NCBI GenBank assembly: GCA_043819555.1
Contig: JBDREQ010000033.1
Coordinates: forward strand, 1-37,658
DNA length: 37,658 nucleotides
DNA from: Candidatus Zixiibacteriota bacterium
GTDB taxonomy: Bacteria; Zixibacteria; MSB-5A5; GN15; JAAZOE01
Direction of reading: 5' to 3'
Below, piece after piece: positions 6,001 through 15,000 of the stretch. The stretch's first letter is position 1; the number at the start of each line of letters is the position of its first letter. A program made the position numbers.

Positions 6001-9000
6001 AACTATATCCGGAGATGAACTTGGATTTTCGTATCGGCATTCACGATTGAAGGAAACCAACGATTTGATAATCTACGCGACTTTTGGCCTTACTTCAGGG
6101 AATAAGGATGATATCACGGGCAAAATTCAGGAAATCCGGAATGATCGATTGCGGAAACACCCATCCGAAACCTGCAGCGCCGGTTGCTTCTTCAAGAATG
6201 TCGAAGACGCTTCGCAGCCTCATGGAAAATTACCGGCAGGAAAGCTCCTTGATGATATTGGGGCGAAAGAGATGACCTGCGGAGGGGCGGGCGTGTTTGA
6301 AAGGCACGCCAATATTATAATAAATAAGGGAAACGCAACGTCAAAAGATATCAGGCAACTGGCCGATAAATTGAAAAGAGCGGTCAAAATGAAATTTGGT
6401 ATTGATTTGCAGGAAGAAGTTATTTGTCTGGGAGATTTTTGACAAAGGAGGTATATATAGCGACTTGATAATTAGATAAACTTAACGCCTTGATTTTTTG
6501 ATTAATGATTAAAAGGCTCAACAAATTAATAATTAGTATTATCCCTGTTATTTTGGGAGTTTTGTGTTTGTGCGTTGCAGCGCAGGCCGCTCCTCCTCAA
6601 TTCCGAGGGTCCTTAAGATATCCGACCAATATGTTCGCGCCCTTCCCGGAAGGAAGATCTCCTGAATTCCGGAAGCGTTTAGTCGCGACAATATCACCTG
6701 CAGACAATGTATTATTGATGAATTTACGTTTTGGGAAACAATACGAATTTGAATATGATCTATCAGATTTTTCCGTTACATATACAAAATTACTGCGGGA
6801 TAATAGTAAACTGACTCCGGTTACTTCCGAATATGGCATCTTTGTTACCCGGCGACTTGAATCGAATTTGGGTGAACTGAGATATGAATCTACCCGAGGT
6901 TCATTGGCTAAGGACCAGCGCAACAAGGCGGGCGGATTATTCCAGATCAGTATTCCTATCCCTTCCCGAGCTTTTGAATCAATTTTCGGAGAGGGCGGAG
7001 CCAGTCTCAAAGTATCCGGGTATCGAAAAATCTCATTTTTAGGCCGCTCGACATGGACAGATAAGCCGCAGACGGCATTTAATCGACAATCAAAATTCCC
7101 TACATTACAGATGGAGCAAATCTATCGCTTTGATATTGAAGGAACGATCGGTTCAAAAATCAGCGTCAAGGTCAGTCAGGATTCTCGCAACGATATTCCT
7201 CTGGCGAATAAGCTGATTCTTAGATACCGCGGTCATGACGATGATGTACTGCAGACTATTGAAGCGGGAAATACGACGTTAAATTTACCCTCGACGAAGT
7301 TTCTTGCTTATTCATCCAGAGTTCAAGGTTTATTCGGAATTAAGGCAACTGCCCAACTGGCGGATTTATCCATTACCGCGATTGTATCCCAGGAGAAAGG
7401 AACAACAGAATCAATCGAAATCTCCGCCGGGGGATCGTCGTCGGCAACAAAAATAATTAAGGATATTGAGTACAAAAAAAATACGATATTTGATTTGGGC
7501 CGCAAACCCCTGATACGATCCTTATCGGATAATCTCCCCGAACCGGACAAATATGATTTTGCGCCCAGGGATTCCATTACCAAAATAATAGTGTACGTTG
7601 ATGACAATACCAATGATGATACTCAAAGGTTTTCTCGCCAATTTGGAATTTGCTATATCGATCCGCAGGATACCACATCTGATGATCCTACAGGAGTCGA
7701 GTACCGCAAAGAAGGTTATTTTGAGGTGATGGAAGAAATCGATTATTTCATGAACCCGACGGAACATTATATCCATTTCATACGCCGGAGTTTGGATACC
7801 AGGGATTTAATGGCAGTTTATATGGAAATTTATCGGTCCGCAACTGGGTTGATCGATACGATTGGAAGTGTAAGCGATACGTTAAGGTTGAAATTGATAA
7901 AACCGGTTAGTATTACGACCGCCAATCATCATGTCTGGGAATATCAATGGAAGAATGTCTATTCTCTGGGCGGTACTAACTTGGAACTCAGCGAAATCGA
8001 TGTCAATATATATAAAGGTAATCCGGTTGGAGGGGCGGTCGATCCGGATGATCTCCCCAATCAGGATGGCATACCGTACCTGCAGATTCTAGGACTTAAT
8101 CGCGGAGATAATTTTGGCAACAAACCCCTGGATGAAGATATTGATCGAGCAGTTTATATCGATGAAATACTGGGTCTTTTATTCTTCCCAACACGCCATC
8201 CATTTAATTCACGATTTGTTCTCGATACTCTCGGAGATACGTTGGTATATGTCCCCGGCGGGGAAATCCCCGCCAATTCAATTGCTTTGAAGGATTCGAT
8301 TCCTGAGATATATAACAGTCCCCAGATAGGTATTCAACAGCAATCGTCGGGTTATTATATGGCGGTTTCCACCAAGGGACGCGGGCAATCGGAGATTTCA
8401 CTCAATGCCGCGAATATTATTGAGGGATCGGAAGTTGTTACATGGAACGGCCAACGGCTTACCCGGGGGACAGATTATCGTATCGATACTGATTTTGGGC
8501 GCTTAACGCTACTCGATGAAAAGTACACGGATATTAATTCCAATCTGTCGATAATGTTTGAAAAAGCGCCTTTCTTTTCATTGGCCAAGAAATCTCTGTT
8601 TGGAACGCGCATCGAGTACGCTCCGAGCAACGATTTCAAAGCGGGGGCGACGGTCTTATATAAATCTGATAAATCGACGAATCGCAAACCAAAGGTCGGT
8701 GAAGAAACATCGAAAACTCTGGTCTGGGACGCCGATTTAAGATATCGGTTTGAAAATCAGTTAATCACCAAAGCTCTGAATGTGCTTCCGTTTTTTTCAT
8801 CGGAATCACCCTCCAATATGCAAATCTCGGCCGAATTGGCTCAATCGCGGCCGAATCCCAATGTTGATGGGCAGGTTTATATTGACGATTTTGAAGGCAG
8901 TCGCGATAATTTTTCTCTCGGCATTTTCCGGGGGATTTGGCGCCATGCTTCAAAACCGGTGCAGATTGATGATTCGTTGAATATTCGGGGAAAGGTCGCA

Positions 9001-12000: not shown

Positions 12001-15000
12001 TTGAATAAAATATCGCCAAGCTGCAAATTTACGCGGACGACATCTACAAAGCAAAGGAAAAACGAACCTCATCCTCATAATGAAAATATCGTTGAATCAT
12101 TTTCGCCTCTGTTTTCATTTTCATTCGTGATGTTTAAGGCCATGCGATCATCGGTCAGGATCGAAACAAGCAAGACTACGGCCAAAAATATTAACGGCAC
12201 CTTCGGCAATGTAACCGACATAACCAAGCGGGGTCAGAAGAGTATTTCATTTAAGACGGCTTATTCATTTACAAGTCCGCGCGGGATTAAATTGCCGATT
12301 TTTGGCCGTTTGAAATTTCAATCACAATTATCTCTGTCGCTTGATGTGTCATACAAGAAGAATAAATCCGAAAGCGCCAAAGAAACGGGCGGATATAAAT
12401 TCAATCTTACCGAAGATATAACAAATCTCGCGATTTCACCACAGGCATCGTACAGTTTTTCGACAACGGTCAAGGGAGGTCTTCGGGCCCGGTGGCAGGA
12501 TAGCAGCAATGCAAGAAATCGCACAAAGACACACACGCGCGAACTCGGCATCTGGGTTGAAATGAGATTCTAACTTAATCCGGGAGTTTTTTCAGGCAGC
12601 AATGAAAATCTGTATAGCGCCTCTTCAACTATTGCATTATATTGGTTCCTGACCATCACCGCAAAAAAACGGAATAAACCAATGTCAAAAAATAAATCCA
12701 ATTTATTTTCAGGCTTGCGGGATTTTCCCTCAGTCGAAATTCTATCGGGGCATTCCTTAATAAAATCTTTCCATAGTAATGTCCCGAAACCTTTAATCCT
12801 GACAATAATCAAGGAAACGGTAGCGAATGAAAAGGAAAGGTTTCGGGCCGGCGACAAATCGATAAATATCGATAAACTTATCGAATTGATATGTGGAGAG
12901 CTAAATAAGCTGAACCACCAAATTCTGAGACCGGTCATAAACGGTACCGGGATAATTGTACATACCAATCTAGGGCGGGCTCCATTGGCAAAAAGTCAGA
13001 TAAAAGATGCTGTGGAAATGGCCTGCGGGTATAGTAATCTTGAATATGATACTATTACGGGACAACGGGGTAAGCGCGGGATTTTGGTCGAGCATCTTCT
13101 GGCGTCACTATGTGGTACCGAAGGCGGCACCATGGTCAACAATAACGCCGCGGCGCTGTTTGTGATATTAAATACATTCGCCAACCGCAAAGAGGTGATA
13201 ATATCTCGGGGGGAATTAGTTCAGATCGGCGGCGGTTTTAAGATTCCTGAGATTATGACTCGAGCCGGAGTTAAATTAATAGAAGTAGGAACGACCAATC
13301 GAACATCATTGAATGATTATAAAAAGGCCATAACTTCTAAAACCAGAATGATACTCAAAGTTCATCGATCCAATTTCATTCAAAGCGGGTTTGTCGAGGA
13401 AGCAACAATAAATAATTTGGCCGGACTATGCCGCGAGAATAACATATTATTAGCTCATGATCTTGGATCAGGGTTGATATCATTGCCGCAAGGATTAAAA
13501 ATAAAAAATGAACCACTCGTTTCTGATGCGATCCGTGCTGGAGCAGATTTAACCTGTTTTTCGGGCGATAAACTTCTTGGAGCGGTCCAGGCAGGTTTAA
13601 TTGTCGGATCTGAAAATCTAATTAAGAAAATAAAAAGCAATCCCATTTTCCGAACGATCCGTTGCGATAAAATATCTTTTGCCGTGATGGCCAAAGTACT
13701 ATCGTCATATTTGCATGGCAATCATTTTAGTGAAATCCCGATCTGGATGATGATTGGCGCCACGCCGGCGGAATTGAAGAGGCGGGGCGAAGTGATTTTA
13801 AGCGCCGCGGGGAAGAATAATATGATTCTTCGGGCATCACACGCCTTTCTTGGAGGGGGGAGTACTCCGGAGCAGTCAATCCCGTCGCTGGTCATATCAA
13901 TCAAAACAAAATCAAATCCAAATAAATTGGCGGCTTCATTCAGGAATTTTTCACCGCCGATAATCGGCCGAGTTGAAAACGATGAATTCTTAATCGATTT
14001 ACGCACCGTATTTCCTGAACAGGACGGCGATATTGTTAACGCAATAACGCGGTTGGTAGTCTGACCATGTTTGTCCTGGGAACGGCCGGTCATATTGATC
14101 ATGGAAAATCTTCATTAATTGAAGCCTTGACCGGAATCGATCCGGATCGCTTGCCGGAAGAAAAAAAGCGGGGGATGACCATTGATCTTGGGTTTGCATG
14201 GATGAAACTTCCCAATGGCGAAGAAATTGGCCTGGTTGATGTCCCTGGTCATGAACGATTTGTGAAGAATATGGTAGCCGGAGCGGGGGGAATAAACGCC
14301 GCCCTTTTAGTTATTGCGGCGGATGATGGGTGGATGCCTCAAACCCAGGAACATTTTGATATTCTGAAACTTCTCAACCTGAAATATGGCATAATAGCAT
14401 TGACTAAAACTGATCTGGTAGAACCCGATTGGGTCGAACTGATAACATCGGATATTAAAGAAAAAGTCAAAGCATCATTTTTGGAAAACGCCCCAGTCAT
14501 CCCCTGCTCATCAAAAACCGGGGCAGGCATCCCCGCAATTATAGGCGGGGTCAGCGAGGTGGCCGCAAAAATTAAAGAAGTCGAAGATATTGGAAGGTCG
14601 CGTTTATTTATCGACAGGTCTTTTGTCCTGACCGGGATTGGTATCGTCATAACTGGTACCAGTCGGGGAGGAGGATTTTCGGCCGACAGTGAAGTCTATC
14701 ATTTCCCCTCCGGCAATAAATTACGCATCAGATCATTGCAATCTCATGAAAGACAGGTTGAGAGAGTCGGACCAGGAACGAGAGTGGCAATCAATTTAAC
14801 CGGGGTTGATAAAGAAGAAGTCAAAAGAGGCGATGTCATATGCGGCTTTTCATATAAAAAAAAGCCGGAAATCTTCGCGGCGAATATTTCAAATCTTGAT
14901 AACTCGGCTCTTGTATTGAGCGAGGGAAGAAAAGTACTTCTAATATATGGAACGACGGAAGTGGAGGCCATTTTAAGACCGATTTCTAATTCGGGCATTA

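Follow-up and report, generated by a model that had tools for sequence, protein, structure and literature searches.

A conserved type IX secretion gene set without detectable Gld motor or ring components in a zixibacterial genome

The window analysed here, a stretch of 37,658 nucleotides from one contig of a Candidatus Zixiibacteriota genome, carries the gene for the outer-membrane translocon of a type IX secretion system (T9SS). Its relevant features are:

5065..5430, + strand: DUF1844 gene (PF08899), within a recG-DUF1844-murB-sprA run, with no known T9SS role
5516..6442, + strand: murB (NCBIfam), a housekeeping gene outside the T9SS
6505..12573, + strand: sprA/sov, the type IX outer-membrane translocon, intact (TIGR04189, PF14349, PDB 6h3i_A)
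6730..6894, + strand: periplasmic part of the SprA N terminus, residues ∼76-130 (alignment of 21 SprA sequences)
8386..8697, + strand: SprA domain (residues 628-731) common to a second giant barrel encoded at C25:16663-19989 (hhalign)

The sprA gene is a single ORF of 2022 aa that scores 601.6 bits with TIGR04189 (cut-off 200). Its sole sequence matches in the PDB are to F. johnsoniae SprA (6h3i_A, E 2.5e-53), to which it is ∼25-30% alike across the aligned parts as judged by eye. Residues ∼76-130 resemble, by eye and unscored, what we take to be the segment enclosed by SkpA in F. johnsoniae. The role of the SprA N terminus is taken from PMC10994853. One skp-like gene follows bamA, and no small barrel gene was seen by eye ahead of bamA. 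murB lies upstream of sprA, adjacent or one gene away, at all 21 loci compared; the DUF1844 gene is present at 11 of these, and it matched none of the GldK, GldL, GldM and GldN profiles. In a phylum sample that includes this genome, SprA was present in 121 of 121 genomes (above cut-off in 120), and the translocon named in a preliminary description of this DNA is thus borne out.

The sortase PorU and PorX, listed in the same description, were likewise recovered, PorU above cut-off on contig C25 and in 61 of 61 phylum genomes, PorX with a score of 646 against a cut-off of 300. The catalytic His and Cys of PorU are intact, the GHG motif and invariant catalytic Cys being present in 21 of 21 sequences, and its operon is conserved across 21 loci. 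A PorU tree that leaves out GldM-positive genomes and has no true root sorts by phylum, with SH-aLRT support of 94.6 for the clade of this phylum and 100 for Bacteroidota. A PorZ-like protein (C1:32662-34869) retains propeller and tail and scores 127 with NF052228, whose cut-off is 260. The run porU-porV-M6, in which M6 is a tagged protease, is followed by DUF5683 genes at 19 of 21 loci in the phylum and 9 of 20 outside it; an atlas look-up of DUF5683 returned unnamed clusters only. Of the 21 M6 proteins of the phylum, 20 have the HExxH motif, and the remaining one is cut by a contig end. Also encoded in the porU operon is the second SprA-sized barrel, which contains two copies of the SprA 628-731 domain (hhalign probability 96.6 and 92.7). 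In a structure search with this barrel SprA was not separated from generic porins (Z 15.0 versus up to 15.8), and aligned length alone sets SprA apart from them.

Nine PorV/PorQ-family genes exceed the cut-off, in agreement with the earlier count as far as family membership goes. The PorV family model also matches in the control B. thetaiotaomicron, whose genus is stated to be without a T9SS (PMC11285876), so not all nine barrels need be T9SS parts; one is closest to BamG. The main PorV scores 231 bits with NF033709 and 170.8 with NF033710, which is the top score among the paralogues but below the cut-off of 250, and the PorV chains 8gl6_F and 6h3i_F rank first for it in Foldseek. It carries a periplasmic propeller/LysM insertion of 500-700 aa, which precedes the first of the 14 barrel strands in all 20 main PorVs recovered and includes LysM domains in nine. 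The porU-adjacent PorV spans 857-1056 aa in this phylum versus 366-436 aa at 15 of 15 loci outside it, and two PorV-family barrels of this genome bear large periplasmic extensions.

Proteins with type A sorting domains, reported earlier as 40, are indeed present, although their number is 45 by family match and 56 with a custom profile; they include proteases, adhesin-like proteins and S8 proteins. Three modules of a TonB-dependent transporter, a large secreted protein and a PorV paralogue (C20, C24 and C71) exist as described, but their earlier use as a pointer to how the system is energised is probably mistaken. PorV-cargo pairs also occur without any transporter, and PorV paralogues adjoin cargo with a variant type A tail; the modules are therefore better read as dedicated carrier-cargo pairs with a transporter next to them, and look like carrier-cargo uptake units rather than an engine. 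According to PMC12635249, type B cargo and PorP/SprF carriers show the same arrangement, with one carrier per cargo, side by side, and a distinct tail, whereas in the present genome PorV paralogues take the place of the carrier and the cargo bears type A variant tails. A profile of seven PorP/SprF sequences gave a best E of 0.096, and a single type B-like tail (CHU_C, 29.3 bits) has an unassigned barrel-like gene of 270 aa as its neighbour.

No motor or ring component was detected alongside these parts. GldM and GldN gave no match in any of 121 phylum genomes, GldL was above cut-off in none of the 121 (three hold fragments of 24-25 positions) and GldK in none of 61, among which seven gave weak matches of FGE type at E<=1e-8. 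As positive controls, 36 of 151 Bacteroidota genomes exceeded the cut-off of the GldM model, and the GldL, GldM and GldN Pfam models matched one control operon. The best GldK candidate in this genome, an FGE lipoprotein of 261 aa, was rejected: it scores 131.6 against 350 bits, is without the GldK middle part and has housekeeping neighbours. That none of the four Gld proteins is detectable is thus confirmed, and the result for GldN and GldK, earlier examined in this genome only, extends to 121 and 61 genomes, respectively; the split between translocon and motor also holds across this larger phylum sample. Full-length Plug was found in 0 of 121 genomes, three having fragments that cover 48-61 of the 414 model positions, and the best match in this genome had E 0.44 versus 1e-23 for the local control.

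This split is not peculiar to the phylum. Calditrichota and KSB1 samples, in which GldM is also lacking, fit the same pattern, and 80 of 109 PorU-positive Bacteroidota genomes are without GldM. Motorless gene sets are already known, having been tabulated for other lineages: the accessible parts of PMC7323717 (Bacteroidetes 'incertae sedis') and PMC11705866 (Melioribacter/Ignavibacterium) list Sov, PorU, PorV, PorQ, PorZ and PorX as present and PorK/L/M/N as absent, much as here, where PorZ is a candidate, and note the gap in passing with no mechanism given. Many partial-set lineages share the porU-porV-M6-DUF5683 order but have the short porU-adjacent PorV, and Melioribacter has a Plug, unlike this phylum. 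In the literature open without subscription we found no account of a motorless T9SS in Zixibacteria and no proposal of an energiser for one. Observed in the present analysis are the lack of full-length Plug in 121 genomes, the propeller/LysM insertion of PorV, the second SprA-sized barrel and the pairing of PorV paralogues with variant tails. The T9SS of F. johnsoniae and P. gingivalis comprises SprA/Sov, PorV, Plug, SprE, SkpA, GldKLMN, PorG and PorU/Q/Z. It shares SprA, the porU-adjacent PorV, PorU, PorX, type A tails and, tentatively, PorZ with the present set, which differs in having no GldK/L/M/N or Plug and no clear PorP match, and in the PorV insertion. A disulfide tether of the PorG/SprF-GldK kind was considered and rejected, no conserved Cys being present in SprA, PorV, DUF5683 or the second barrel.

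At the level of sequence, the parts are SprA, PorU, PorX, one PorV orthologue with several paralogues, a PorZ-like candidate and 45-56 cargo proteins that bear the tag. We propose, with a probability of roughly 0.38, that these form a working type IX-like system of a pre-Gld form, with carrier release driven by a Ton-type motor and the Gld proteins added later in one Bacteroidota lineage. Sec would take cargo across the inner membrane, and the cargo tail would bind a PorV-family carrier docked at SprA; in F. johnsoniae carrier loading at SprA is energy-free (PMC10994853). General cargo would then be handed to PorU for anchoring, and variant-tail cargo would remain on its own carrier. In the least certain step, the cell's one Ton-type motor would drive release of the loaded carrier by way of the periplasmic carrier extensions. 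The later Gld addition would have brought both motor and ring, presumably in a single lineage.

A Ton-type motor as the energy source is a tentative assignment drawn from gene content. The MotA/ExbB-family stators of this genome comprise only TolQ, flagellar MotA and a single ExbB; stator loci inspected in four genomes (G034, G099, G045 and G084) were of the same kinds, the fourth stator being a second MotA-MotB pair, and no extra ExbB beside a PorV gene was found in the phylum, two stator loci of G045 lying outside this count. Here ExbB is encoded in one run with a TPR protein, a membrane protein, two ExbD and TonB, and the TPR-X-ExbB-ExbD-TonB run is kept in seven of seven phylum genomes inspected. 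In Calditrichia genome G122 ExbB (only 30% identical to ExbB of this genome), two ExbD-like genes, TonB and a TPR protein share a single run with a tagged cargo and a PorV-like barrel. In G125 exbB and exbD lie two genes downstream of sprA, and an FCB operon uniting sprA and TonB-domain genes has been described (PMC12419801). Against Ton-driven release, the run in this phylum is joined to no PorV, cargo or other T9SS gene, and the seven TonB-dependent transporters of the genome suffice to explain its retention; the G122 run may be a separate adhesin machine, with no counterpart in this genome. The LysM domains of the main PorV also point to a fixed anchor more than to a shuttle that is pulled. 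When the main PorV (residues 28-896) and the C-terminal domain of TonB were modelled as a complex, two runs scored 0.00, which speaks neither for nor against.

Fixed anchoring is central to a doubtful though serious alternative, in which secretion is unpowered: the main PorV would remain docked to the side gate and be held to the peptidoglycan through its LysM/propeller insertion, no Plug would be needed, and cargo would be ratcheted out by tail binding, outside folding and irreversible PorU cleavage/transfer, perhaps with help from the M6 protease encoded with porU. The missing full-length Plug, the universal insertion among recovered main PorVs and the energy-free loading in F. johnsoniae agree with this, as does the M6 protease, which is present in 64 of 80 PorU-positive GldM-negative genomes and 0 of 36 GldM-positive ones. 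However, 16 of the 80 do without it, some members are labelled inactivated (NF052323) and its exclusion from GldM genomes may reflect one event. Cargo is moreover trapped on the F. johnsoniae translocon without the motor (PMC10994853), a Plug and a short PorV occur in the motorless Melioribacter, and one gate must still swap several carriers. An improbable alternative is a dedicated energiser unrelated to GldLM and ExbBD. Candidates are the DUF5683 pair, which so often follows porU-porV-M6, the membrane protein preceding exbB, which matches no family (unnamed atlas clusters only), and a MoxR/vWA Bat cluster downstream of the porU operon at three loci. DUF5683 proteins, however, have an outer-membrane look (signal peptide, terminal Phe), and the porU and sprA neighbourhoods across the phylum hold no conserved ion-channel or ATPase gene.

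The preliminary description left the choice between another energy source and unrecognisable Gld homologues, and the former is more likely. Divergence beyond detection is a slim prospect, in spite of Gld profiles built entirely from Bacteroidota, the low likeness of SprA itself to its F. johnsoniae counterpart and a protein with only the GldM C-terminal domain in 2 of 61 Calditrichota genomes. The same type of model readily finds SprA, PorU, PorV and PorX, and 54 of 61 genomes are without a GldK-like match at E<=1e-8. Custom profiles run with filters off over 7586 ORFs gave best E values of 0.007 for GldL (coiled-coil part only), 0.24 for GldM and 0.57 for GldN, and profile-profile comparison of 16 neighbour families with the four Gld profiles scored at most 4%. 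A topology screen that recovers 19 of 19 control GldL/GldM pairs returned 44 GldL-like ORFs among 2970, 14 of them with a loosely GldM-like neighbour. Pfam inspection covered these 14, the 30 unpaired ORFs lying outside it, and no pair survived: 11 match unrelated families, and of the other three one precedes a tagged cargo, one a cohesin/Ig protein and one a DUF3857 protein. Slimmer still is the prospect of leftover genes or another process, such as outer-membrane assembly, with tagged proteins not exported via SprA. PorV-family barrels do serve non-T9SS roles, as the control and the BamG-like barrel indicate, but sprA and porU are intact and single-copy across the sample, PorU keeps its catalytic residues, and the tagged proteases and adhesin-like proteins are numerous.

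The set as a whole is best read as a pre-Gld, probably ancestral stage of type IX secretion. A fuller version, rather unlikely as a whole, would be a motorless, Plug-less machine ancestral to FCB and beyond, with Ton-pulled PorV handles and, beside it, a second, stripped-down SprA-sized pore with its own TamA-like partner, the drive being replaced by Gld only in Bacteroidia.

GldKLMN are mandatory in current T9SS definitions (PMC10515386, PMC4793230), the T9GPred set being SprA, GldK, GldL, GldM, GldN and SprE/PorW (PMC10515386), and standard tools therefore score these bacteria as T9SS-less despite dozens of tagged proteins. According to structural work the motor is required to free the loaded carrier (PMC10994853), and a 2025 study infers that the T9SS first evolved within gliding machinery (PMC12635249). 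A conserved motorless form in several phyla conflicts with both and, if true, the ancestral Ton-driven reading would reverse the proposed origin within the gliding apparatus. Dependence on the proton motive force and the identity of the motor become testable in cultured motorless relatives such as Melioribacter, Ignavibacterium, Rhodothermus and Caldithrix. Concrete targets are offered by the missing Plug, the second giant barrel and the PorV with its predicted wall-binding insertion.

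The SprA translocon claimed in the preliminary description is borne out: sprA is a single, intact reading frame whose 2022-residue product scores 601.6 bits on TIGR04189 (cut-off 200) and whose PDB sequence matches are to F. johnsoniae SprA only. Its surroundings are of a housekeeping kind:

upstream of sprA: recG, a DUF1844 gene and murB, housekeeping genes
6505-12573 (+): sprA
12682-15965, downstream of sprA: selA and selB, ordinary selenocysteine genes

murB adjoins sprA or stands one gene off in all 21 loci, and selA and selB lie 3' of it in 9-10 of them. Near homologues of one operon protein bear the label Zixibacteria, in agreement with the earlier assignment. 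As previously described, the genome (3.35 Mb, 79 contigs, 97% complete) also encodes PorU, PorX and nine PorV/PorQ-family barrels; all of these score above cut-off, and a PorZ-like protein scores below it. Dozens of type A proteins were confirmed, but their number is 45 by model or 56 by custom profile instead of 40. SprA was matched in 121/121 phylum genomes (120 above cut-off) and PorU in 61/61; all 21 aligned PorU copies carry the GHG motif and share an invariant Cys. The PorV/PorQ count overstates type IX carriers, because the PorV family model also matches B. thetaiotaomicron and one weaker barrel is nearest to BamG. A PorQ-like barrel immediately 3' of lptE in three genomes (L021:2315-3879 on contig C2 of this genome; stretches L224 and L236) may have a role in LPS or outer-membrane assembly instead of secretion. 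Contig C64 encodes a lamin-tail protein whose tail is type B-like (CHU_C above cut-off; L268:6537-8212); an unassigned 270-residue barrel-like gene follows directly, and the two possibly form a type B pair without detectable PorP. In Melioribacter (stretch L208), a genome without GldM, porX lies immediately 3' of sprA. P. gingivalis PorX binds PorL, according to the title of a paper, yet PorL would not be predicted where GldM is lacking.

No recognizable motor or ring accompanies these parts. GldM and GldN were found in 0/121 phylum genomes, GldL in 0/121 above cut-off and GldK in 0/61 above cut-off, with 54 of the 61 lacking any GldK match at E<=1e-8; the split reported earlier thus holds across the phylum. 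The Pfam GldL, GldM and GldN models match a control operon, and the GldM cut-off is passed in 36/151 Bacteroidota genomes. When 7586 ORFs were searched without filters, using custom profiles built from 18-20 control operons, the lowest E values were 0.007 for GldL (coiled-coil part only), 0.24 for GldM and 0.57 for GldN; the sole match to the GldK profile, a stand-alone FGE lipoprotein, was rejected. A topology screen that passes 19/19 control GldL-GldM pairs returned 14 candidates, and inspection with Pfam left no credible pair among them. Of sixteen conserved neighbour families, none exceeded 4% when compared with the GldK, GldL, GldM and GldN profiles, versus ~100% for split controls.

The pore-without-motor split is general and extends beyond this phylum. 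PorU is above cut-off in 109/151 Bacteroidota genomes, 80 of which lack GldM; the 36 genomes of the sample with GldM are presumably Bacteroidia. GldM is above cut-off in 0/61 Calditrichota and 0/61 KSB1 genomes, and two of the former (G278, stretch L185; G313, L186) encode a stand-alone protein of ~262 residues matching the GldM C-terminal part only. For Calditrichia, KSB1 and Zhuqueibacterota a single genome per group was checked, and each has both SprA and PorU. In a 41-sequence PorU tree, this phylum (SH-aLRT 94.6) and Bacteroidota (100) form separate clades, as would be expected from vertical descent. Since that tree has neither a GldM-positive genome nor an outgroup, the ancestry of the motorless form rests on parsimony, which draws on the FCB phylogeny.

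Surveys of this distribution were reportedly made by McBride and Zhu in 2013 and by Veith in 2017. The gap is already in print as a listing: Bacteroidetes 'incertae sedis' have 11 parts including Sov, PorU, PorV, PorQ, PorZ, PorX and PorF without PorK-N (PMC7323717), and Melioribacter and Ignavibacterium have PorV, SprA and Plug only (PMC11705866). Among FCB phyla, SprA is stated to be absent solely from Chlorobiota (PMC12611786). Our literature search found nothing on a motorless type IX system in Zixibacteria.

The porU operon has a conserved order in 21 loci. After porU come porV (recovered in 20 loci), a tailed M6 metalloprotease that contains FG-GAP repeats (21), a pair of DUF5683 genes (19), a gene for an NHL lipoprotein (18), a second giant barrel of 1100 residues (18) and, where the locus extends far enough, a POTRA-Omp85 gene. 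The M6 protein, already contained in NCBIfam as NF052323, occurs in 64/80 PorU-positive GldM-negative genomes versus 0/36 GldM-positive genomes of the Bacteroidota sample, an exclusion that may represent one event. A MoxR/vWA Bat cluster lies 3' of the operon (L014:3562-12829, contig C25), and MoxR is downstream in three of the loci reaching that far. The second giant barrel is located as follows:

L013:16663-19989 (this genome, contig C25): second giant barrel, between the NHL lipoprotein and POTRA-Omp85 genes

Its model (pLDDT 89.8) has ~36-38 long strands by manual DSSP count. The barrel is SprA-sized with a reduced cap, and it has a domain in common with SprA (hhalign 96.6%). SprA is the first Foldseek match, at low TM-score, and VIA aligns the two over 678 residues of the full chain (Z 15.0, rmsd 8.6); small porins equal SprA in VIA Z, yet align <=349 residues. 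Calditrichota and KSB1 share with this phylum the setting between NHL lipoprotein and POTRA-Omp85 genes. Named homologues come from Ignavibacteria, Eisenbacteria, Calditrichota, KSB1 and Flavobacterium, and because they reach Flavobacterium the barrel is not confined to motorless lineages. It is possibly a second export pore.

The described modules of transporter, PorV paralogue and secreted protein exist on C20, C71 and C24. The first two comprise a transporter, a tagged protein and a PorV paralogue; in C24 the transporter is followed by a PorV paralogue and then by a lipoprotein-like gene with no detected tail. With tail classes assigned by a simple pattern, 0/33 general-tail cargo genes versus 6/23 others have a PorV-family gene at most two genes away, and in three relatives a tagged protein, always with a variant tail, adjoins 11/20 PorV-paralogue loci. 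Like pairs occur without a transporter. From gene order, a PorV paralogue and its neighbour read as one carrier per cargo, as likewise holds for type B cargo with PorP/SprF, and three of the seven transporters of this genome would use a displayed partner. Six paralogous secreted proteins (835-865 residues) have a common variant tail and are dispersed, none beside a PorV gene:

contig C25: 74192, 204945, 207732 and 213023
contig C31: 16247
contig C3: 3512

The preliminary interpretation, that the system is energised otherwise or by unrecognizable homologues, is supported in part: the absence is phylum-wide, but the split is general and the modules read as carrier-cargo pairs.

According to PMC10994853, F. 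johnsoniae Plug closes the pore at rest, and loading is energy-free while release of the loaded carrier requires the motor. PF17116 detects Plug in Melioribacter and one GldM-positive genome and not in three phylum genomes. A profile from Melioribacter-like Plugs, which recovers a distant control at E 1e-23, found nothing in this genome (best E 0.44) and short fragments only, in three, among 121 phylum genomes. Nor did it detect a complete Plug when applied to one genome each from Calditrichia, KSB1, Zhuqueibacterota and Chloroherpetonaceae. By analogy, the lack of Plug implies a different resting state, since the F. johnsoniae Plug seals the pore.

The MotA/ExbB-family stators of this genome are TolQ, encoded in the tol-pal operon, the MotA of the flagellum and a single ExbB; among the loci read in four relatives, the only further stator is, at most, another MotA-MotB pair. 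In 7/7 phylum genomes read, the ExbB run comprises genes for a TPR protein, a multi-pass membrane protein, ExbB, ExbD (in two copies where this could be resolved) and TonB:

L213:4608-5588 (this genome, contig C5): multi-pass membrane protein between the TPR gene and exbB

This protein has no Pfam family and only unnamed clusters as Atlas matches. The ExbB run shows no linkage to type IX genes in this phylum. Outside it, a Calditrichia run (stretch L258) joins tagged cargo, a PorV-like barrel ending in a C-terminal FlgD-like domain, a 1037-residue TPR protein, ExbB, two ExbD-like proteins, TonB and an Ig-like gene; another genome (G125) has exbB and exbD two genes 3' of sprA; and PMC12419801 describes an operon of FCB bacteria that combines sprA with genes encoding TonB domains. 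Because of these links we tentatively rank first, at a probability of about 0.35, a Ton-type motor that would drive loaded carriers off the pore. Close behind, and almost as likely, would be a ratchet that needs no power, its PorV docked and tethered to the cell wall. The operon PorV has 857-1056 residues in this phylum versus 366-436 in 15/15 outside loci; the extra part matches Reg_prop in 16/20 members and LysM in 9/20. In the main PorV model (pLDDT 82; Foldseek gives PorV first, then sensor propellers), it follows the N-terminal hatch and precedes strand 1 of the 14-stranded barrel, a predicted periplasmic position given the known topology of the fold.

By the definitions of T9GPred (PMC10515386) and TXSScan (PMC4793230), the present system fails as a type IX secretion system; judged by its parts, it appears to work like the outer half of one. 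PMC12635249 infers that type IX secretion first evolved inside gliding machinery, and the motorless distribution argues against that origin.
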